DNA from: a virus
Length of the DNA stretch: 64,000 nucleotides
Reading direction: 5' to 3' (one strand)
IMG/VR virus record: IMGVR_UViG_3300028909_000018
Location: 32,001-96,000 of that record
The notes under the pieces were generated by a model. It was not told where the DNA came from, did not search any database, and worked only from the letters and a program-made list of their open reading frames with translations. The position numbers and the translations under genes were made by a program. Position 1 is the first letter of the stretch. Every line of letters starts with the position of its first letter. Positions 9,071-63,920 of this stretch are shown in pieces.

Positions 9071-10165
9071 TTAATGAATCTCTAAGTCATTGACAACAGT
9101 GAGTTTTCCGTCTCGTAGAAGTGTCAGGCTCACCTTGTCGCCAACATTATGCATCGCGACTTCCTTGATAAGAGCGGCAGGAGTAGAAATGTTGACCGTA
9201 TCAATTTTCAAAATGATATCACCAGCCTTCAGCTTATCGTTATGGTTAAGAATCTGATCATCATCCATGATCCCCTGAAGCCTGATGCCCTTATAGAAGG
9301 TATCACCGGCCACAAGCGACAACATCTCTGTATTTTCGATGATGACAAGGCCGATATGCTTCTGTTGGAATCTTCCCGTCTTGATAATCTCGGTCACCAC
9401 CACCTTGGCATACTTAGAAGGGATGGCGAATCCAAGACCGGCAGAAGTATGTGATGGTGAATATATGGCCTGATTAATCCCGATGACTTCACCATTCATA
9501 TTGAAAAGAGGGCCACCAGAATTGCCGGGATTGATAGGCGTATCAGTCTGAAGTGAATCATCGAAAGGCGAATCCAGACCTTCGGAGTTTTCACGATCAA
9601 CAGCCGAAATGACACCAGCCGTCAGGGTATGATTAATTCCATAGGGACTTCCCACGGCAAAAACTTGTTGACCAACCTTCATCTTCTCACTATCACCAAA
9701 GGCGACGGTAGGAAATTCACGATCAGTTTCGCTCTTGACAATCTTTAGAACGGCGATATCAGTTGCTCTATCCGATCCTACTACTTCCACGTCACGTTCC
9801 GATCCATCCTCAAGGACGATGGTTATGTTTCTATTACCAGAACCCTGAATGACGTGATTGTTGGTGATGATCAGCCCATCGGTGCTGATAATGAAGCCAG
9901 AACCGATTGCACCACCAGTCTTGTGCGGTGAAAAAGGAAGAAGAACATCCTTTTCTTTATGTTTCTTTATAATGATTTCATTGACAATATGATCCAGATC
10001 AGACATCTGTGTCCACAGAATAGGAATATCCAACTGTGGTGCATGGATGGTGACGACAGCGGGAGACACCCGTTGATATACGTCGCTTATTTCTTCTCCA
10101 AAAGCCGCCCCATAGGCGAATAGAAGAGCTACGGCGGTGACGATAAAGACGATAAGATACTTCAC
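9071..10165 (-). CDS. htrA: HtrA/DegP-family serine protease with PDZ domain
   Basis: Signal peptide, GSGFII, TNNHV, DIAVLK, QTD.PINPGNSGGPL and a C-terminal PDZ (GDIILKID). Confidence 0.95.
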   Translation of the reverse strand: MKYLIVFIVTAVALLFAYGAAFGEEISDVYQRVSPAVVTIHAPQLDIPILWTQMSDLDHIVNEIIIKKHKEKDVLLPFSPHKTGGAIGSGFIISTDGLIITNNHVIQGSGNRNITIVLEDGSERDVEVVGSDRATDIAVLKIVKSETDREFPTVAFGDSEKMKVGQQVFAVGSPYGINHTLTAGVISAVDRENSEGLDSPFDDSLQTDTPINPGNSGGPLFNMNGEVIGINQAIYSPSHTSAGLGFAIPSKYAKVVVTEIIKTGRFQQKHIGLVIIENTEMLSLVAGDTFYKGIRLQGIMDDDQILNHNDKLKAGDIILKIDTVNISTPAALIKEVAMHNVGDKVSLTLLRDGKLTVVNDLEIH

Positions 10166-10518
10166 TTTGGGGCCACCGTGTTATCATCAGCAATAATTGA
10201 ATCAAAAAGATTACGAAACTTTTCGAGACTCATGGTAGAATTTATTTCCGTTGTGCCGTAAGAGATGACACAAACCTTTTCGGTCTCGGTGGATGCGGAA
10301 AGGACCATCGTCTCCTTGGTTTTAAAGTTGAAGAAGATGCTGAATTTATCCTTGACCAGCTTATCCGCAATGACCAAGACAGGTTCGAAACCTTTCTTCT
10401 CGATGCCTTTAACGAAGTCTGCATTTCTGCTGCAATCAGGAACATCCTGAGTATAGGTTACAGCCATGGCAGAGGTAGAGAGAGCAAAAATAAATCCAAG
10501 TGCGGCTAGAAGTCTCAT
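10162..10518 (-). CDS. Secreted hypothetical protein
   Basis: Signal peptide (SAMA) and two Cys; overlaps the htrA start. Confidence 0.7.
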   Translation of the reverse strand: MRLLAALGFIFALSTSAMAVTYTQDVPDCSRNADFVKGIEKKGFEPVLVIADKLVKDKFSIFFNFKTKETMVLSASTETEKVCVISYGTTEINSTMSLEKFRNLFDSIIADDNTVAPK

Positions 10519-10586
10519 TACATTTCCTTATGTGGGAGGGGGTTTTAACACTTCTATTTATGGCAGACTTCTAAGGCTTTGTCAAA

Positions 10587-10661
10587 TGGAGGCGCTACTG
10601 AGGATCAAACTCAGGTCTCAAGATTTGCAGTCAAGCGCATGGGTCACTCTGCTACAGCGCC
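10587..10661 (-). tRNA. tRNA-Cys(GCA)
   Basis: Acceptor GGCGCTG/TAGCGCC, U73, encoded CCA, loop CTGCAAA. Two mismatches in the anticodon stem; T-loop TTTGATC. Confidence 0.85.
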
Positions 10662-10669
10662 GAAAAAGT

Positions 10670-10905
10670 CTTGGTGGGGTAAACTGGTGTGCTTACCTCT
10701 TTCTTGACATCCAAGTATGCCGACCCCTCTTACCAATGCCATTCATTACGCCTAGTAGAGCAGTAATGAACTGGGGTAGATATCCATGATCCACAAAGCC
10801 TCTACTAAGGTGACGGATCAGAAGGAACATCTAGCTACTATCTTGCATGATGGCTGAGAGGGCTCACCTGTCATTTAATCCTCTTGCACAGAGGAACCAC
10901 CCAAG
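10670..10905 (-). ncRNA. Putative ~235-nt structured RNA with kissing loops
   Basis: No credible ORF, terminal pairing, several hairpins, complementary 8-nt loops and an adjacent late promoter. Confidence 0.6.
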
Positions 10906-10913
10906 TATTTATC
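10906..10913 (-). promoter_or_regulatory. Late promoter GATAAATA
   Basis: Matches this phage's late motif; abuts the 5' end of the ncRNA candidate. Confidence 0.55.
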
Positions 10914-10963
10914 CTCTGCCGGGAAGATTCCCCTAGATGCCTTATCAGGGCATGACAGAAGTT

Positions 10964-11037
10964 TGGAGCGGGATAAGAGATTCAAACTCTTTTCATTAGC
11001 TTGGAAGGCTAAGGCACAATCCATATACCAATCCCGC
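10964..11037 (-). tRNA. tRNA-Gly(TCC)
   Basis: Acceptor GCGGGAT/ATCCCGC, arm TTAGC-CTTCCAA-GCTAA, U73 and CCA. Confidence 0.92.
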
Positions 11038-11053
11038 GATTAGTGTATTCTAT

Positions 11054-11372
11054 TTATACTAAATCTATCTCGTCTATCTCGTAAAAGTCTTCAGAAGGTG
11101 TAAGAAGACGGTTTTCATCTATAATTTTTGAATATCTACAATCAAACATATCATAATTTATGCGCTTTCCGTACTTGTCATATACAAATTTATTCTGAAT
11201 TTCCATCATTTCTGACATAAGTTCATTGTGTTTCAGAACATCCTTTGCTTGTTTTTCTTTCAACTCCACAACAAATGCATTGGCGTCGGCCTCATTATGG
11301 AAGGCCTTTTAAATCCACACGTTTAAATTCCTCGTAAATCAACTCTTGTCGGTAAACAACATAAATCTTCAT
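11054..11372 (-). pseudogene. Hypothetical gene with an apparent extra A at ~11308
   Basis: MKIYVVYRQE...RVDL in frame 0 joins KAFHNEADANAFVVELKEK... in the +1 frame. Confidence 0.45.
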
Positions 11373-11376
11373 ATCA

Positions 11377-11481
11377 CTAATCCTTCATTTTCTTACGGTC
11401 ATAGACTTTCTTGGACTTCACCACCCGCATCTTGTACTTAGGAGTTCGAAGGTCTTTGGCAATCATGTTTCGCGTTTTCAT
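11377..11481 (-). CDS. 34-aa basic peptide, ArfA-like
   Basis: AAGGA RBS; MKTRNMIAKDLRTPKYKMRVVKSKKVYDRKKMKD. Below the ORF-track cutoff. Confidence 0.7.
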   Translation of the reverse strand: MKTRNMIAKDLRTPKYKMRVVKSKKVYDRKKMKD

Positions 11482-11500
11482 GACAAATATCCTTTAAAAA

Positions 11501-11578
11501 TGGCGGGGAATGACGGAATTGAACCGACATTGCACTGGTTGAAGGCCAGTTTTCCTAGTCCTGTTAGAAGAATTCCCC
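11501..11578 (-). tRNA. tRNA-Glu(TTC) with C33
   Basis: Acceptor GGGGAAT/ATTCCCC, G73, CCA; arm ACTGG-CCTTCAA-CCAGT; Glu-like D arm. Confidence 0.85.
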
Positions 11579-11626
11579 AATTCTTTATTTATATGCAATA
11601 TACGAATTTGCATACAATGTCAACCC

Positions 11627-11908
11627 TTATAGGAAATAATTTGTATCCTTTACCTTATCCCATGGAGCCGTGTACAACTTGAAAGGACATCCACAGCCTC
11701 GAAATGTCTCCTGCCAGACTCGAATCGTCTCTTCCTCCAACGGACCCAGCACAATCTCGGCCTGATTAGGCGGCGAAATCTTTTCGATGAAGTTAACATG
11801 CACGTTTCGAAACATGAATTTGGCGAAGACTTGTGGATAGTTAACGTCTACATCGAAGACGAATCGGGCAACGTAGTGCATTTTTTTCCTTTTGAAGAAG
11901 TTAAACAT
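11627..11908 (-). CDS. Hypothetical protein
   Basis: ORF in the minus-strand gene run. Confidence 0.55.
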   Translation of the reverse strand: MFNFFKRKKMHYVARFVFDVDVNYPQVFAKFMFRNVHVNFIEKISPPNQAEIVLGPLEEETIRVWQETFRGCGCPFKLYTAPWDKVKDTNYFL

Positions 11909-11915
11909 TTGTTAT

Positions 11916-12281
11916 TTATAGAATAAAATACGCGGTGACGAACAGGGTAAGAAAATGAATCGTCTGATCCAGACCCACGACGACGAAGAAATTATGCCTG
12001 TCACCTTTCTTATAGAAATATGACGATGCCCTAGACGTGATGAAGTCAACACCAAAATGGATGACGCCATTTATTAAGGCAAATAGGAGAATATCGTTTG
12101 TGTCTATACCAAAACGAAAAATAAAAATACCCAAAAATAATATCAGGGTATACACACCGACATGTGCTGCCAGCGCCTCGTTGTTAACACTTTTATTCTG
12201 TGCCATCCAATCATTTTGGAGAAAGAAGTCTCCATACCAATGTATAAGAAGCAACACGAGAATGAGAGGTAGACTAATCAT
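11916..12281 (-). CDS. DUF3307 membrane protein
   Basis: HWYGDFFLQ..WMA.NK, HF.VD and GLDQTIH motifs. Confidence 0.9.
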   Translation of the reverse strand: MISLPLILVLLLIHWYGDFFLQNDWMAQNKSVNNEALAAHVGVYTLILFLGIFIFRFGIDTNDILLFALINGVIHFGVDFITSRASSYFYKKGDRHNFFVVVGLDQTIHFLTLFVTAYFIL

Positions 12282-12299
12282 TTCAAATCCTTTTTAAGT

Positions 12300-12375
12300 T
12301 GGTAGTCCGTGTCAGGTTCGAACTGACAACCTTGGAATTAAAAGTTCCTTGCTCCACCCATTGAGCTAACGGACT
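12300..12375 (-). tRNA. tRNA-Lys(TTT)
   Basis: TAGCTCAATGG D arm, CTTTTAA loop, GTTCGAAC T arm, ACCA end. Confidence 0.92.
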
Positions 12376-12379
12376 GGAA

Positions 12380-12456
12380 TGGTAGACTTGGAGTGATTCG
12401 GACACTCGACCTTTCGCTTAAGAGGCGTCTGCTCTAACCAACTGAGCTACAAGTCC
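12380..12456 (-). tRNA. tRNA-Lys(CTT)
   Basis: TAGCTCAGTTGG D arm, CTCTTAA loop, ACCA end. T-loop TCCGAAT and only a 3-bp anticodon stem. Confidence 0.85.
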
Positions 12457-12462
12457 AAAAAG

Positions 12463-12675
12463 TTATTTATCTTTCCTGTTTCTGATGTAATCCTCGACGT
12501 TCAAAAGATTCCTGAGCATTTCTCTACGCGCCATCGCATATTCAGGTCCAAGAACCAGAAGATCATTAGTCAAACGATTAAACAGAACACGAAGTTTTTC
12601 CAGTTCTTCATCAGTGACATGATCACCGTAGTAAAACTTTTTATAAATTCCGGCCAACTCTGTATCAAATCTCAT
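12463..12675 (-). CDS. Hypothetical protein
   Basis: GAGG RBS; helical ORF. Confidence 0.65.
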   Translation of the reverse strand: MRFDTELAGIYKKFYYGDHVTDEELEKLRVLFNRLTNDLLVLGPEYAMARREMLRNLLNVEDYIRNRKDK

Positions 12676-16818: not shown

Positions 16819-17336
16819 CTAGCCTTTCACGCCATATTACTGTGCATACCGTATTCTCATAGATGGCGGAAACACCCATATCCGACATGGACTCCCTTTC
16901 GAGAGCAATCTGTTTAGCAAACAGTTGCCGATCCCCTCGGCTTGTCATTTCCATTAAATTTGGCGGAAGAGTGGCTGTGTCGATCACCATACGATTACTC
17001 ATCGTACCATCCGATTTCAAGTCGGTGAAGGGAGCCGTCCCTCATACTCTTCCATATTTCTATTTATTCTTTTTAATTTAGTATTTTGACCTTTGTATGT
17101 TAGCGTCTGAGAATGACAATTAGGACATATAACCATAAGATTTTTATTTGAAATCCGAAGGTACGGTTTCAATCCAAGTTTGTTTTTCATCAGAAACATA
17201 CAAAACCTTGTCATAATTCTCGAAAAACTCCTTACTATCCACGTCATCCCGGAAATTCCGAAGATGCTCGTTTATCTGATCATTGTCAAGTCCCTTATCG
17301 ACCCTAACGTGAAAAATATATTTCATTTTTTTTCTC

Positions 17337-31413: not shown

Positions 31414-32746
31414 TTATAAATCTTTCCTTCTCTTCCTTAGTGTTGGACATGGTATTCTGGTCTGTCGCGCCGAGATTGAACAACTGCATCTTGGCCTTGT
31501 TAATCCCGACGAGAAACTTCTTATAGGTGTTCACGTCGTTATATCTATTTTTAATTTGAACGAACTGCATCTGACGATCCCGCTCTAGCTCTTCTGACGA
31601 CATGAGAGCCCAGATATGATCCGCCGTCATGGCGGTGCCAAAACTTTCAGAAACATCTTCCATGCCGGGATCAGACGAGGTATAACCCGATCTATTAAAT
31701 TGAGTCGCGGTGATAATCGGCACCGAGAATTCAACCGATAGACCACGTATTTCTTCACCCACCACCTTGACATATTCATAAATGCTGCCACCACCCATCT
31801 TCATGGTGGAGGAAAGACAGATATTCAGATAATCAATATAGATGATGTCGGGAACGAAATTCTTCTTTAATTTCAATTCCTTGATAACGGCCCGAAAGTT
31901 GGCCGAGCCAGCCTGTCGGGTAGGATATTCCTTGACGACTAGCCGTCCTGTCGTCTTGGCCTTCAATCTATTGATACTATTAACGAAATGTTCCTTTGGA
32001 AGCATTAGAAGTTGATCAACGTCCAAGTCCAGAATGTTCTCGTCAATACGCTGGGAAATCATCTCTTCAGACATTTCCAAGGTGATATAAAGGACGTTCT
32101 TTCCCTGAAGAAGATTATTGGCGGCGAAGGCACACATGACGAAGGATTTACCGACACCGGGACCGGCCATCAGGATCGTCAACGTCTTCTGAGACACGCC
32201 CCCCTTGGTGATCTTATTTAAGATATCGATATCAAAAGAAATCTTGTTCTGAATCTGGTGATAATATTCAAAACGAGACTCGGCATCATCAAGATAATCA
32301 TGCCCAATACTGTTGTCGAAAGTGATGGCACAGGCCTGCGACATGATGTCTGGAATAGCGCCACGATCAAGCTTACCATCCTTGTCGTCGCAAATCTGAA
32401 TAGACTTCAGGAGGGCTAGGTAGATGGCCCTGTTCTTGGCGAATTTCTCCGTCTCATTGAAGAGCCAATCAACGCTTGTGGCCGGATCAATCTCCAGTTC
32501 ATCCACAATTTTCTTGCACTCTTCAAATTGTGTGTCATTGACCTTATCCTTGTTGGAAAGATCGATCCATGCTGCTTCTTTTGAAGGTAGTGTGTTATAT
32601 TTCGCGATGTAGCTACCAATAACGTCAAAGACGATCCTATCATGAGCATCCTCGAAATATTCCGGCTTGATATATGGAAGTACCTTCCTCGTGTACTGTT
32701 CATTGAACATGAGGTTGGATAAGATGATCCTATCGAAATTGATGAT
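31364..32746 (-). CDS. gp41: Replicative DNA helicase
   Basis: AGPGVGKS, TLEMSE, KEYPT, DYLNI, TATQ.NR and SESFG motifs. The conserved N-terminus extends upstream of ATG 32710. Confidence 0.96.
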   Translation of the reverse strand: MINFDRIILSNLMFNEQYTRKVLPYIKPEYFEDAHDRIVFDVIGSYIAKYNTLPSKEAAWIDLSNKDKVNDTQFEECKKIVDELEIDPATSVDWLFNETEKFAKNRAIYLALLKSIQICDDKDGKLDRGAIPDIMSQACAITFDNSIGHDYLDDAESRFEYYHQIQNKISFDIDILNKITKGGVSQKTLTILMAGPGVGKSFVMCAFAANNLLQGKNVLYITLEMSEEMISQRIDENILDLDVDQLLMLPKEHFVNSINRLKAKTTGRLVVKEYPTRQAGSANFRAVIKELKLKKNFVPDIIYIDYLNICLSSTMKMGGGSIYEYVKVVGEEIRGLSVEFSVPIITATQFNRSGYTSSDPGMEDVSESFGTAMTADHIWALMSSEELERDRQMQFVQIKNRYNDVNTYKKFLVGINKAKMQLFNLGATDQNTMSNTKEEKERFINDTSKKLDKSAFKDFF

Positions 32747-34286: not shown

Positions 34287-37001
34287 TCAAAATGTACATC
34301 CTCCCGCGACACAGGCCAATTCCTGCGTATTTGTTGTTGAGTCTTCCTTCTCGAATTCAACCAGTGACGACCAGTCAACGTTCTGAGGCATCTTCGCCAC
34401 CAGACTTTCATATTCTTCTGAATTACACTCGGTGAATGGTGCCTGCTGATAGACAGTATCACCCTCTTCGGCAGGCAAGAACGAAACGCCGCTCATCCAT
34501 TCAAAGTTTTTATAGACCCATGCGCCGACTTCCAACCATTCATCTTCCTTGACGGAGATGGTGACGGAAGGCTTATGCTCACAATAATCCTTCTGATAGG
34601 CCAACCAAAGTTCAAGATGTTCGATGGCCGAGATTTCCTTACGCCCGATGGAGCCGGGAGCAGACTTGATTGGAAATTTAAAACAGACGACATTCTTTGG
34701 GTCCATCACATCAGTCTCCCATGGGAAGCCAGCATCCATCATGAACTTCGTCAGAGGGTCTTTCAGATCGTTTCTCACATACCGCACATAGGTTGGTGAG
34801 TAGGATGGATGGAAGCCTGATGAGGTTCCGTTGAAGGCCGACGAGGTACCTTCTGGCTTGATACAGGTGATGGCGACGGAGGCATTGATGCCGATTTCCT
34901 TGGCCACCTTCATATTTGTTCTGATGGCTTCCGCCTTCATAGAAGTTCGGAAATTTTCAAAATCAAATTGAGCATTTTCATCAAACTCATTATTCTCATA
35001 GGCCTGACCATTCGTCCAACCATTATCGAAGACGCCATTGAGAGAGACACCCAGCAAACGCTCTTCCTCACAATTACGCTGCCACTTCTTTTTCAGATAT
35101 TTAAAATCTGTGAAGCAAGACTGGAAGGTGCCAAGGATCGTCGCCAACTTGATTTTATTCAGGATGGATTGCTTACTGTCATCCTCATAAATCTGGACTG
35201 ATGTCAGGTTACAGAATTCATAGGGACGTAGAATGATTTCCGCGCAATTATGGACAACAATAAAATCTGCAATAAAATTATGAGTGTCTTCCACACTAAG
35301 ATCATAAACATCTGTAATCGGTCCTTCTTGAATAGAAATTACATTTGCATATTGATGTAAATTGCTTTTTAAATCTTCTGGGATAGGAATAATTACCTTG
35401 GCCCCATGTCTAGAATTTTCGGGAGAAATAAATCCAATATTATTTACACATTTATCATTATATCCCACAACCCCATGATTATTTGGCTGTTCTATGCCGG
35501 TTAAACGCGCATGATCTTCATGAGACAAACATTCTAAATTATCAATATCATTATTATATGTATCTCCATCAATATGATGTACATCATATCCGACAGGAAT
35601 TTTTCCATAGTAAGCCTCGAAAACTAATCTATGTTCCATCACAATTTCTTGTTTTGTTTGTGTGGTTAATTTTACACCAGAATATGCTGCCCCCCTACGA
35701 TTTCTGGTAAGATGAACTACTCTATCACCAATTTTTATATTCTGTGCTTCCAGCCACCCACGACCTTCTACATAAATCTTATGGTCGGGTGTACAAATCA
35801 ATTCTTTACAAGAAGAAATTGTAATTTTCAATGTATTAGCCTTTTTCTTACTAATCCAAGAAGCAGAAGAATTTCTAATACAAAGTTTACCATTTTTGTC
35901 CATAGAATAAACCATGGTTGGTTCCTTAATATCTTTAATTTTTACTCTTCCATGGATCGTTTCGACCATACTATCGGGATGAAGACATGGATTTACCCCG
36001 AATTCATGGTTGGTGTCACGTTGCGGAGCATCCTCAAAGTTGATTGAACGATATTCGTTGGCGTTGTCAATCACGCGCCTGATGGCCTTGCGGGAGACGA
36101 TCCCACGTTCCCCAGAATGAGACTCGTAAAGGCTCAACCATTCCTTCATGAAGACGCCCATGTCGGGCTTCTCATTATATACAGCCGAGTTATTGGCGAG
36201 GCGACGATAAGGATTGGTCTTCCACCACGTCCCGCTCTTGGCGTCGCGCATACGGTCATCATTAAGGTCGGAGAGCGAGATAAGCGCCGAACGACGCACA
36301 CCACCAACCACGACGATATCCGCCACCTTACAGGCTATATCATGTGCCTCTAGCGTGGTGAGACGACGACCAGCCGCCTTCTTGAAGGTGTTGAGTGTGA
36401 AGCGTAGAAGTTCGACCAATGGGTCCGGTCCACTAGAACGACCACCCATGGTCTTCAGACGAGCCCCGGCAGGCCGAAGCTTGCTCACGTCCCACTTGGG
36501 TATTTGACCAATCATCAACAGGCTCAAAAACTCGCGGTAGCCCTTGGACCAGCCAAGGCGAGAGTCATCAAAGATGATGGTTGTGTCTGACTCAAAGAAG
36601 GTGTCGGGCAACTCAGGAAGCTGCTTGACGTTATCCGACTCGACGGAATAGCCGACGCCTGTGCCTGACATGAGGATGGCCATTTCCTCATCGAACGACT
36701 TCATGTCATCCATCGGAAGGTAGGCGCAATTATACAGGGCGACATGGTTCTTCTTCGCGGCGGGACCAGCCGTCATCAGAGCCCTCATCGAAGGCATGAT
36801 ATCATGGTTCAGAACGGCATTGTATAATTCGTCATAGTAAGGAGCGATATCGTAGTTATGCTTCTCCTTCAAAGACTCCCCAATGAAATCAAAGTATCTT
36901 TTTACGGTCTCTGACCAAGTCTCTCGTCTATTCTTACTATCAATGTATCGTGCATACCGGCTCGTAAAAATGAACTGTGAATATAGTGAATCCTTAAACA
37001 T
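34287..37001 (-). CDS. nrdJ: Class II (B12) ribonucleotide reductase with intein
   Basis: PSMRALM, NCAY, GGVRRSA, NP[intein]CAEI, IKPEGT, EHKPS and C-terminal CVAGGC. Confidence 0.95.
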   Translation of the reverse strand: MFKDSLYSQFIFTSRYARYIDSKNRRETWSETVKRYFDFIGESLKEKHNYDIAPYYDELYNAVLNHDIMPSMRALMTAGPAAKKNHVALYNCAYLPMDDMKSFDEEMAILMSGTGVGYSVESDNVKQLPELPDTFFESDTTIIFDDSRLGWSKGYREFLSLLMIGQIPKWDVSKLRPAGARLKTMGGRSSGPDPLVELLRFTLNTFKKAAGRRLTTLEAHDIACKVADIVVVGGVRRSALISLSDLNDDRMRDAKSGTWWKTNPYRRLANNSAVYNEKPDMGVFMKEWLSLYESHSGERGIVSRKAIRRVIDNANEYRSINFEDAPQRDTNHEFGVNPCLHPDSMVETIHGRVKIKDIKEPTMVYSMDKNGKLCIRNSSASWISKKKANTLKITISSCKELICTPDHKIYVEGRGWLEAQNIKIGDRVVHLTRNRRGAAYSGVKLTTQTKQEIVMEHRLVFEAYYGKIPVGYDVHHIDGDTYNNDIDNLECLSHEDHARLTGIEQPNNHGVVGYNDKCVNNIGFISPENSRHGAKVIIPIPEDLKSNLHQYANVISIQEGPITDVYDLSVEDTHNFIADFIVVHNCAEIILRPYEFCNLTSVQIYEDDSKQSILNKIKLATILGTFQSCFTDFKYLKKKWQRNCEEERLLGVSLNGVFDNGWTNGQAYENNEFDENAQFDFENFRTSMKAEAIRTNMKVAKEIGINASVAITCIKPEGTSSAFNGTSSGFHPSYSPTYVRYVRNDLKDPLTKFMMDAGFPWETDVMDPKNVVCFKFPIKSAPGSIGRKEISAIEHLELWLAYQKDYCEHKPSVTISVKEDEWLEVGAWVYKNFEWMSGVSFLPAEEGDTVYQQAPFTECNSEEYESLVAKMPQNVDWSSLVEFEKEDSTTNTQELACVAGGCTF
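35247..35987 (-). mobile_element. Intein (247 aa) with HNH endonuclease
   Basis: Starts CLHPD, block B CTPDH, block F VYDLSV..THNF, ends VHN/C. Internal HHIDG...NN..NL; AT-richer than its flanks. Confidence 0.95.
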
Positions 37002-44310: not shown

Positions 44311-45423
44311 TCAGTCCTTTTCGTTGAGAAGATATCGGTCTGATATCATCTTGAAGCTAAACTCACCATCGTTTGACTTGAAGACAAGACCCTCGGCGGG
44401 ATAAGACTTACCATCTTCATTCTGGAAGACGGATTTGTCGGCAAGTTCATGAATAAAGTCAGCATTCAAAAGGTCGTTAAAGAAGATGCTAGCATAACAA
44501 ATTGGAGCCAACGTTAATTCAACAGCATAACCTTTCAGCATTCCAATCAGGACGATACGTTCAAACGGAGAAAGATATCGTTTCGTGTCAATGTCATAAA
44601 TGTCGAACAGATAGAAATCATGCTCCTTGATACCGTATGGATTACCCTGAATTCCGGGACCAACCAGTTCACCCTGAAGCGCGACGTTCATATTAAGGGC
44701 AAGAAGCGCCTCCTTGAGACCCAGCTTACGAGTTACCTTCCAGAAGAGATTTTCTGATCCTCCTTCCTTATGAAAATTCTTTTCGGCGTCATCAGCCAAG
44801 TTCATGTTGCGGGAGCAAACCCCAAAGTCATCATCATTCTTATAGACCGTCATAGACGACCCATCCATCTTGATGGTGACTTCGAATGGCATTGTTTTGT
44901 ATTTCTCCAACTCCCATTCACGAATGTTCTGATACCGTTCCTGATCCGTCTTCGGAATGAACGAGGGGAAGTTGCCCCGCGCGATGCCCTGAAGGCTGGT
45001 AGGAATGGGCTTCTCATACTTTTGAATATGGAGAAGTTCGGTCAGGTCTTCTCCCTCTTCAAGAAAATCGGTCAACAACTGACCATCCTCATTCGTGGCG
45101 TTGATGATTTCAGGGAATTCATCCAAAGGCAGGATGAGACCCTGTGAAATCTGACCCCTCAACTTGATGCTGCGGAGACGGAAGCCATCACCCAAATTCT
45201 TGGTTGACTTGAAGCCGCTCTTTCGAAGAAATTCATAACGTTCCTCGACCGGGAGAAATGAATCAATTTCAAAATAACAAACCAATTCTCCGACAGAATA
45301 ACCCTTCCGAGAGACAACCCACCACCCATCAATCCGATAGGCGACGATTCTATCGGCACCGGGAATATCTCTAATCTCGGCAATGCGACGAACTGTCGCC
45401 AACTTTCGTGTAATCTCAGTCAT
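44311..45423 (-). CDS. RNA ligase, DRB0094 family
   Basis: RKLAT...I.GAD.I, LRGQISQGL, KTDQER, KMDGSS, QGEL.G and EGLVFK motifs. Confidence 0.93.
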   Translation of the reverse strand: MTEITRKLATVRRIAEIRDIPGADRIVAYRIDGWWVVSRKGYSVGELVCYFEIDSFLPVEERYEFLRKSGFKSTKNLGDGFRLRSIKLRGQISQGLILPLDEFPEIINATNEDGQLLTDFLEEGEDLTELLHIQKYEKPIPTSLQGIARGNFPSFIPKTDQERYQNIREWELEKYKTMPFEVTIKMDGSSMTVYKNDDDFGVCSRNMNLADDAEKNFHKEGGSENLFWKVTRKLGLKEALLALNMNVALQGELVGPGIQGNPYGIKEHDFYLFDIYDIDTKRYLSPFERIVLIGMLKGYAVELTLAPICYASIFFNDLLNADFIHELADKSVFQNEDGKSYPAEGLVFKSNDGEFSFKMISDRYLLNEKD

Positions 45424-62771: not shown

Positions 62772-63920
62772 TTAGTAGACCCACTTTAAGTTGCCATTGT
62801 CCCAGATAGAACGAGCCTTGTCAACGTTTGTTTGGCTTCCTGTATTCTTTTTTAGAATGTCAAGAAGGTGTTGTTTAACTTCCGTGATATTTATAGAAAT
62901 TTTATCAAAGAAGGTAAAGGCGGTGGCCCGAACATAGGAATTAACCCAATCCTTACTTTCAAGGGCGAATTCTTTACGAGTCATATTCGTGGCGTTATAA
63001 TGTTCAAGCACACCAAAAATGTTGTCGGCCTGTTCATTGAAGTTGCACCAGAATTCATATTCAAATTCTTCGAACTTCTCCCGATCAGGCTCAGTCAGAA
63101 GTACTCGGAAGTCGTCGGCCATTCCTTCCACCAGAATGGCGATGACATTCTTTTCACGCGCCAGTTCGTCCTTGGAGCGATGTAGCAGGCAATATTGATC
63201 GGCCTTGATCTTCACCATGGAGCCATCAGACCACCGCACCACGAAGCCCTCTAGGCCTTCCATAGGCTTTACAGCTTCAACTAGCTCCTGCATCGACGCG
63301 ACGGTGCCGGGATATTGTTTGACGACATCAACATCAAAAGCAAGAGCAATATGATTCATTCTTGAATATTCAAGATAGTTTCCAGATACATTATGACGAA
63401 TTCCGATCAGCACAAGACGATCTTCGGGGTGAGAAATAACAATTCTATTTTGATTTGAACACCATTCAAAGATGGGCGTCATACTCCATTCTGACATACA
63501 CCAGTTGGCAAATTCTAGGTATTTTGGATTTTTCTCAACGAAAGCCTCGATCTGTGGCGTAAGAAACGTCACACCGGCCTTCGAACCCCACGTCATCTTC
63601 CCATAGGAAATCATCGTCGTCACCATCGATCCGTCCAGCTTCTCCAAGATTACATGCGGCTTGGAGAAATCAAGATTCTCGACTAGCGTTTCAGGACGTT
63701 CATTGACGTTAAAAAACTTATGAAGGCGTCGAGCCATAATCCGACCATCTTTATAAAAGATGATCCCACGACATTCCTTTTCGACAGCGTTATGGAAGGT
63801 GTCGGGAGTATTGACGATGTAATCGATGACGATGTAATCTTCCTTGTAATTAACGTGGAAGTTATCATTGCCTCGGATGTGGGGCAGCACGTCGTCAATG
63901 GTCTCGATAATTGGGAACAT
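62772..63920 (-). CDS. rnlA: RNA ligase 1 (T4 Rnl1-like)
   Basis: ECRGIIF, KFFN.NE, EKLDGS, FEW....NRIV, EGFVV and VKIK..Y..LH motifs. Confidence 0.93.
   Translation of the reverse strand: MFPIIETIDDVLPHIRGNDNFHVNYKEDYIVIDYIVNTPDTFHNAVEKECRGIIFYKDGRIMARRLHKFFNVNERPETLVENLDFSKPHVILEKLDGSMVTTMISYGKMTWGSKAGVTFLTPQIEAFVEKNPKYLEFANWCMSEWSMTPIFEWCSNQNRIVISHPEDRLVLIGIRHNVSGNYLEYSRMNHIALAFDVDVVKQYPGTVASMQELVEAVKPMEGLEGFVVRWSDGSMVKIKADQYCLLHRSKDELAREKNVIAILVEGMADDFRVLLTEPDREKFEEFEYEFWCNFNEQADNIFGVLEHYNATNMTRKEFALESKDWVNSYVRATAFTFFDKISINITEVKQHLLDILKKNTGSQTNVDKARSIWDNGNLKWVY

Follow-up and report, generated by a model that had tools for sequence, protein, structure and literature searches.

A conserved structured RNA with two complementary loops and an encoded CCA end, probably expressed from the tRNA cluster of a distant T4-type peat phage

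Small stable RNAs in phage tRNA clusters have reportedly been known since the 1970s (species 1 and 2 of T4), and to our knowledge none of them has an assigned function. The locus described here raises the question of what lies in the gap between tRNA-Gly(UCC) and tRNA-Cys(GCA), and of what such an RNA might do. We conclude that the element filling this gap is a real, conserved, and structured RNA gene that is probably expressed, that has a loop-loop contact under selection, and that ends in CCA in the manner of tRNAs. The window, i.e., the whole stretch of 64,000 nucleotides that was analyzed, covers positions 32001 to 96000 of a 107,554-base IMG/VR record (IMGVR_UViG_3300028909_000018) that is judged 62% complete. 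Nearly all words of this record are present in 15 DNA runs from peat metagenomes. The phage encodes a gp5-like baseplate hub, T4-type tail proteins, a DnaB-like helicase, a primase, and homologs of gp44 and gp45. Its tail protein matches only distant T4-type phages, at 20 to 25% identity (Caulobacter Cr30, Pelagibacter HTVC008M, Sinorhizobium phiM12, and cyanomyoviruses). Hence, we regard the phage as a far-T4-type myovirus, none of whose close relatives has been cultured.

On the minus strand, the element occupies the space between the two tRNA genes (Table 1), which is where the initial annotation had located it. The sequence motifs on which that annotation was built were all found in place. 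The first of them, GATAAATA (10913-10906), runs directly into CUUGGGUGG (10905-10897), and the latter pairs with CCACCAAG (10677-10670), given one bulged G. The three hairpins are UCCUCU/AGAGGA (10895-10890 with 10884-10879), UGAUCC/GGAUCA (10820-10815 with 10792-10787), and UUCAUUAC/GUAAUGAA (10770-10763 with 10749-10742). The proposal that there is no credible ORF also holds: stops interrupt all three sense frames, both in the window and in the one homolog that we found (L002, see below), and a 45-aa ORF of the window loses its frame in L002 through 2- and 4-base indels. The fold energy is modestly below that of shuffled sequences (z = -2.4; 5 of 100 shuffles fold as well). This is unremarkable, and the case therefore rests on comparison and on RNA data. 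A model built from the element (R1) detected no further copy elsewhere on the same contig, and the conserved single-stranded blocks have no antisense targets within the 107-kb contig.

Table 1. Features of the RNA element and its immediate surroundings (window coordinates).
Feature	Positions	Strand	Remarks
tRNA-Gly(UCC)	10964-11037	-	Upstream neighbor; encodes CCA
ATAAATA box, T4-type late-promoter-like	10906-10912	-	Directly upstream of the RNA; candidate promoter
RNA, maximal extent 234 nt	10672-10905	-	3' end is the A of encoded ...CCCCACCA; 5' end probably 10898-10900 by the box rule
P1, 5' strand GGUGG	10897-10901	-	Pairs with CCACC 10673-10677; RNAalifold; G-C to G.U in L002
P2 hairpin UCCUCU-GUGCA-AGAGGA	10879-10895	-	One pair U-A to C-G in L002
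P3 hairpin UGACAGG-UGAGC-CCUCUCA	10855-10873	-	C.C mismatch here, C-G in L002
P4 weak hairpin GCCAUC...GAUAGU	10837-10854	-	Two one-sided changes keep pairing; least certain helix
Long arm P5a-P5b-P6, about 14 bp	10777-10833	-	Ends in 22-nt loop L6; P5a and P6 invariant
Kissing segment in L6, CUUAGUAGAG	10800-10809	-	Pairs with 10751-10760; CCUAGUAGGG in L002
P7, CCCC/GGGG	10724-10776	-	Encloses P8 and a 14-nt 3' strand, GGCAUUGGUAAGAG
P8 hairpin UUCAUUAC/GUAAUGAA	10742-10770	-	13-nt loop L8
Kissing segment in L8, CUCUACUAGG	10751-10760	-	UUCUACUAGG in L002
P9 hairpin GGCAU-ACUUGG-AUGUC	10706-10721	-	Kept in L002, U-A to U.G
P10, 3' hairpin GAGGUAA...UUACCCC, then ACCA	10672-10699	-	tRNA-like 3' end: stem, one base, CCA
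10-nt spacer to tRNA-Cys	10662-10671	-	No terminator; also 10 nt in L002, unrelated sequence
tRNA-Cys(GCA)	10590-10661	-	Rfam 46.6 bits; ARAGORN call only at relaxed thresholds; encodes CCA

The RNA had been left without a family, and our searches agree: an Rfam 15 cmscan of the 501 bases at 10560-11060 against 4,227 families listed only the two tRNAs, both at gathering scores and at E<=10. ARAGORN, even when run with relaxed thresholds, gave no tRNA or tmRNA in the gap. The RNA is like tmRNA and tRNA in ending with a stem followed by ACCA and in sitting among tRNA genes, and it is probably matured by the tRNA machinery. Unlike them, it has no acceptor/T-arm pair, T-loop, anticodon arm, tag frame, or other conserved frame.

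Homologs were sought with DNA patterns taken from four conserved blocks, with the neighboring protease, and with the gp5-like protein. The viral, metagenome, and genome collections that we reached contain one other sequence variant, L002 (the same as L006, IMGVR_UViG_3300029922_000439); two metagenome contigs, L103 and L104, carry an RNA identical to that of L002 (the scan that gave them also returned 2 chance matches). By BLAST, the RNA of the window is about 75% identical to that of L002. The gene order is common to both phages: tRNA-Gly, RNA, 10-nt spacer, tRNA-Cys, a small ORF, and an HtrA-like protease. Identities reach 90% for the gp5-like protein, 79% for the protease, and 100% for tRNA-Gly. 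A blastn search of the spacer against 50,697 phage records gave no match, and a 6-kb query matched tRNAs only. Scans of viral contigs with 17-mer and 16-mer patterns recovered L006 plus 8 and 85 chance matches, respectively, and neither a loop-based pattern nor one running from P3 to block C added anything new in viral or genome contigs. The protease-based search led only to L002 and to unrelated tRNA-less loci, the best GenBank match of the protease (H21) being bacterial DNA, and the alignment of the gp5-like protein gave nothing beyond the contig of the one relative lineage. The two-sequence model R1 had no match in T4 regions or in 21 other loci. A tRNA-Gly pattern found one locus (L100) in which tRNA-Thr follows tRNA-Gly in place of the RNA. 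A protease 66% identical to that of the window (P0003) lies on a 2.5-kb ENA contig, which probably represents a third lineage.

RNAalifold and a structure-guided comparison with L002 resolve the RNA into about ten helices. When 57 pairs, including the loop-loop duplex, are read on the MAFFT columns, 100% of cells are paired, vs 32 to 47% in a control where partners were slid by 1 to 3 columns. MAFFT misaligns the covarying stems, and matching the helices by hand reveals further double changes. In the structure-guided register, 12 to 13 base pairs have changed on both sides between the window and L002 and still pair (1 in P2, 3 in P5b, 1 or 2 in P7, 3 in P8, and 4 in P10). For example, UCC/GGA of P5b has become GUU/AAC, ACCCC/GGGGU of P7 corresponds to UCCCA/UGGGA, the upper half of P8 has gone from UUAC/GUAA to GUUG/CAAC, and P10 reads GGGACUU...AAGUCUC in L002, again followed by ACCA. 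With no more than two distinct sequences to compare, the statistical test of covariation is weak, and values as high as those observed arose in 30 of 500 column shuffles. Still, the structured noncoding RNA of the initial annotation finds support in compensatory changes in five helices with one homolog, and these changes indicate that the fold is under selection. Judged by sequence comparison, the double changes and the lack of a conserved ORF qualify the element as a conserved structured noncoding RNA. The fold is uncertain in P4, in P3, and in the junction strands, and for the last two there are competing pairings; one of these joins CUCU of the P3 3' strand to AGAG (10731-10728) over 4 bp and also covaries (CUGU/ACAG in L002). 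The longer P1 proposed earlier adds CUUGG with CCAAG. L002 preserves this reach into the 3' trailer through other pairs, UUGG/CCAA and GUGG/CCAC, with GG bulged (by eye).

Two of the hairpin loops are complementary to each other. On the minus strand, UAGUAGAG (10800-10807) lies in the loop of the second hairpin and CUCUACUA (10753-10760) in that of the third, and the claimed 8-bp complementarity indeed consists of 8 Watson-Crick pairs, which become 10 with an adjoining C-G and U.G. The loops of L002 again form 8 Watson-Crick pairs, shifted by two, or 12 pairs with wobbles. Shuffling the loops reaches 8 Watson-Crick pairs in 0.06% of trials for the window (p = 6e-4), and the loop-shuffle p for L002 is 2e-5. 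Within the 107-kb contig, loop 6 is the only sense-strand site complementary to loop 8 with at most one mismatch. Three substitutions (U to C, A to G, and C to U) fall in the duplex, and pairing is kept in all three: from the window to L002, U.G becomes C-G, A-U becomes G.U, and G-C becomes G.U. All are transitions to or from G.U, none amounts to a full double change, and the chance that all would keep pairing is about 1 in 8 without selection. The expected covariation of the loop-loop pairs is thus seen in part, as changes that are all compatible with pairing but include no full double change. The kissing bases are 85% identical, like the helix columns, vs 46% in the remaining unpaired or poorly aligned columns. 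In L8, UCUACUAGG is invariant and the stem below it has changed at three pairs. The G.U pairs fit the minus strand only, and selection therefore acts on that RNA rather than on a DNA palindrome.

Is the RNA made? Four peat metatranscriptome runs were compared with the 2.5-kb stretch at 10000-12500, and the transcript that had been predicted is matched, at the contig level, by exact RNA-library contigs from two separate metatranscriptome studies. One of them (run X18) matches 10672-10822 exactly, over 151 nt and at a depth of 13.7, and ends at 10672, the A of ...CCCCACCA. The other (run X20) matches 10677-10810 exactly and has adapters on both sides. No exact contig in the four runs falls on coding sequence, which occupies over half of 10000-12500. 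There is one contig per run, possibly made of PCR copies of single molecules, and such contigs show presence rather than level or true ends. The 5' third (10823-10905) has no RNA contig cover, which counts neither way, and the length of about 235 nt therefore rests on the sequence. In run X20, the adapter order places read 1 along the plus strand, which would fit a minus-strand RNA if the library was dUTP-stranded. In the same stretch, a contig of run X19 with adapters on both sides matches 11430-11569 exactly, covering most of tRNA-Glu and 70 nt downstream.

How transcription begins may be less simple than initially proposed. In T4-type phages, late transcription starts some 6 to 8 nt downstream of the late box, and late units need gp55, gp33, and gp45. 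ATAAATA occurs 33 times in the window, vs 13.3 +/- 3.6 expected (a 2.5-fold excess), and no shuffle reaches 33. Many copies lie 15 to 35 nt before an SD-ATG on the coding strand. In three cases, a spacing of exactly 7 nt separates the box from a tRNA-type 5' end (tRNA-Lys(CTT), tRNA-Glu, and the Ser-tRNA region), and a further copy precedes tRNA-Gly by 13 nt. Since the base preceding ATAAATA varies, GATAAATA is as good a box as any in the window, and it lies within a 41-nt block that is identical in L002. Besides the enriched box, a gp45 homolog is present in this phage; a tblastn search for T4 gp55 gave no match in the 62%-complete contig, whose incompleteness means that this says nothing about absence. 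By the spacing of the box, the RNA would probably start at about 10898-10900 (GUGGUUCC or GGUUCC). A start 6 to 8 nt after the box leaves CUUGG outside the RNA; the helix formed by CUUGG would then have to be part of an extended precursor, unless transcription also starts from another promoter. Hence, of the late-promoter-driven RNA with a terminal helix in the initial annotation, the box is confirmed as present and enriched, but the start that it implies conflicts with the CUUGG helix. That the pairing between CUUGG and the 3' trailer is preserved in L002 suggests an extended precursor made by read-through from the promoter of tRNA-Gly; both routes may operate. The boxes next to the three other tRNA loci are at 12457-12470, 11579-11592, and 17054-17067 (minus strand), each 7 nt before the mature 5' G; those tRNA genes may be transcribed singly and almost leaderless, with a reduced need for RNase P.

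The 3' side has the same layout in both homologs: a 7-bp stem, ACCA, the 10-nt spacer, and tRNA-Cys, without a terminator. This is what would be expected if RNase P at tRNA-Cys and subsequent 3' trimming made the end, as in tRNAs that encode CCA. tRNA-Cys has no ATAAATA box of its own and is likely the co-transcribed partner of the RNA.

Which known RNAs does the element resemble? RNAC (species 1, rnaC, 139 nt) and RNAD (species 2, rnaD, 119 nt), which together occupy 70908-71171 of NC_000866, come from the tRNA region of T4 and are late RNAs whose role is unknown (PMC3014915, PMC9697503). Like them, the peat-phage RNA is noncoding and lies in a T4-type tRNA cluster, on the tRNA strand, abutting tRNA genes; its place between tRNA-Gly and tRNA-Cys in a T4-type phage is a location of the RNAC/RNAD kind. 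In T4, rnaD is followed by ...GCGCACCA, which resembles ...CCCCACCA of the peat-phage RNA, and two hairpin tips of rnaC (UUGACG and CGUCAA, by eye) are complementary over 4 to 6 nt. The differences are also clear. The peat-phage RNA is about twice as long as RNAC or RNAD and has some ten helices, its loop-loop duplex is longer than that of rnaC (8 to 10 bp vs 4 to 6), and the canonical T arm of rnaC (GGGUUCGAAUCCC) is absent from it. Model R1 has no match in the T4 tRNA region at E<=10. In the absence of detectable homology, the RNA is therefore an analogue, i.e., an uncatalogued family of the same kind as RNAC and RNAD, unrelated to them, in a distant T4-type peat phage.

The explanation that we favor, at somewhat better than an even chance, is that the element encodes a stable noncoding RNA of about 227 to 234 nt that is made with tRNA-Cys, is trimmed to its encoded CCA, and is an analogue of RNAC and RNAD. 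Transcription together with tRNA-Cys would proceed from the box at 10906-10912, by read-through from the tRNA-Gly promoter, or from both. By what is known of tRNA biology, RNase P would then cut at the 5' end of tRNA-Cys and leave a 10-nt trailer, which exonucleases would trim to the encoded ACCA behind the 7-bp P10, where one of the RNA contigs ends. Comparison with L002 supports the next step, in which the RNA would fold into about ten helices with two neighboring arms, P5-P6 of about 14 bp and P7-P8 of about 13 bp, whose loops would form the 8- to 10-bp duplex, locking the arms within the molecule or joining molecules. As for function, we can only guess that a compact, CCA-ended particle might act in trans by binding a protein, and not by pairing with mRNAs; an enzyme that reads tRNA ends, or a host defence factor directed at tRNAs, would be examples of such a partner. 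Our best guess is a protein-binding or self-assembling particle made late with tRNA-Cys. The loop-loop duplex of this RNA is conserved and unusually long, its CCA end is encoded, and it can be detected in environmental RNA. Taken with recent structures in which RNAs associated with phages use loops of this kind to assemble, its shortness (about 230 nt) makes it a tractable candidate for asking whether tRNA-cluster RNAs self-assemble and what they bind. The existence of two sequence variants only and the lack of a cultured host restrict its value.

The main alternative concerns the same RNA with L6 and L8 pairing between molecules, which would give head-to-tail rings, cages, or chains. In phi29 pRNA (RF00044), a phage RNA, two mutually complementary loops pair between molecules to give a ring; this RNA is part of the packaging motor of phi29-like podoviruses, and its loops pair over 4 bp. 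T4-type phages, as far as we know, package without RNA. GOLLD and ROOL often adjoin tRNA genes. These two RNAs and manA (RF01745) are structured, phage-borne RNAs in which two different loops of the same sequence kiss and thereby build oligomers, ROOL and GOLLD being 2.5 to 3.5 times longer than the peat-phage RNA. In manA RNA, the L5-L7' and L8-L9' contacts are intermolecular in pentamers and 60-mers (bioRxiv 10.64898/2026.07.01.735769), and in ROOL and GOLLD the loops that are complementary to each other pair between molecules (PMC12286853). The loops of the peat-phage RNA show this very arrangement, complementary to each other and not to themselves, and the RNA is tRNA-adjacent and phage-borne like phi29 pRNA, ROOL, GOLLD, and the short cyanophage-associated manA RNA. 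Furthermore, a duplex of 8 to 10 bp in a loop of 12 to 13 nt leaves linkers of 1 to 3 nt, which is tight for a contact within one molecule. The tight linkers, together with the precedent of manA, ROOL, and GOLLD, thus favor assembly. Against it, no linker separates the starts of the two neighboring arms, and the arms match in length in each homolog (14 and 13 bp in one, 13 and 14 bp in the other), a geometry that would suit side-by-side packing in one molecule, as in the purine riboswitch; also, the Rfam models of pRNA, manA, ROOL, and GOLLD have no match in 10560-11060 at E<=10. Because the arms start side by side and have kept equal lengths in both phages, we lean slightly toward an intramolecular lock from the sequences at hand, and the intermolecular alternative as a whole seems to us rather unlikely. 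One can go further and imagine a compact self-assembling unit in which L6 binds L8 of the next molecule, so that RNA rings or cages would fill the cell late in infection, with a CCA end exposed on each subunit that could capture host proteins binding tRNA ends. This we hold to be unlikely. If it were true, the RNA would join ROOL, GOLLD, and manA in this role as a third family, unrelated to them and much smaller.

The stable RNA that we favor must also be weighed against explanations in which the segment has no life of its own. It could be a processing spacer, folded merely to guide the cutting of a tRNA-Gly...tRNA-Cys precursor and then discarded. Such a role would suit its position between tRNA genes without a terminator. 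The pairing between CUUGG and the 3' trailer, retained in L002, likewise suggests a stem of the precursor, and the contig-wide antisense search found no function or target. However, a length of some 230 nt, ten conserved helices, and a tertiary contact that is itself conserved go far beyond the needs of a processing stem, the other tRNAs of the cluster lie 4 to 7 nt apart or have their own box, and the fragments in the RNA libraries correspond to the element ending at CCA rather than to the adjoining tRNAs or mRNAs. We therefore find a discarded spacer quite improbable. Even less credit can be given to a cis-acting leader, similar to a riboswitch or T-box, that would control tRNA-Cys or the genes of the 118-aa ORF and the protease. 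The segment is indeed long, structured, and upstream of genes on the same strand, and its 5' UGGU can pair with the 3' ACCA (by eye); yet Rfam gives no riboswitch or T-box match, there is no terminator/antiterminator pair and no stem sequestering an SD, the 118-aa ORF has its own ATAAATA box and SD, and the RNA ends at a defined CCA that lies 10 nt short of tRNA-Cys. Finally, the element could be what is left of a tRNA, tmRNA, or intron after decay, its hairpins having arisen by chance. This would account for the position in the tRNA cluster, the CCA-like end, and a 49-nt tRNA-like mini-structure just upstream, but it is largely refuted by the empty ARAGORN (relaxed) and Rfam searches, by the lack of a T-loop motif or tag frame, and by compensatory changes indicating a selected fold.

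The mini-structure itself, the 49 nt between tRNA-Gly and the box (10913-10961, minus strand), folds into a three-armed, tRNA-like shape that has no D arm. Its 7-nt loop, CUGAUAA, is invariant in L002, and the stem below it has changed from AUGCC/GGCAU to GCUGCG/CGUAGC. The 41-nt block in which the two phages are 100% identical includes the short third arm and the outer stem's 3' strand.

The surroundings of the RNA have diverged unevenly. One of the metagenome contigs with the L002 form of the RNA, L104 (Ga0302281_10014771), is a mosaic that is about 90% identical to the window upstream of tRNA-Gly and about 78% identical from tRNA-Gly onward; a recombination joint thus lies close to the gene of tRNA-Gly. 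In tRNA-Cys, the window (10590-10661) and L002 (5498-5572) have diverged strongly, with many compensated stem changes, in contrast to tRNA-Gly, 300 nt upstream, which is 100% identical. Directly downstream of the tRNA cluster, at 9071-10165 on the minus strand, lies the gene of an HtrA/DegQ-like serine protease of 364 aa with one PDZ domain, which has only two close relatives among 5.8 billion proteins. It is preceded by the 118-aa ORF, whose N terminus resembles a signal peptide (by eye).

Elsewhere in the window, the gene of the ribonucleotide reductase large subunit (34287-37001, minus strand) contains an intein with an HNH endonuclease domain. Two RNA ligase genes, of the Rnl1 and Rnl2 types, are found at 44311-45423 and 62772-63920 (minus strand), with the PHROG labels “RNA ligase” and “RNA ligase and tail fiber protein attachment catalyst.” This pair accompanies the two tRNA-Lys genes, an association that points to tRNA repair or replacement against anticodon nucleases.
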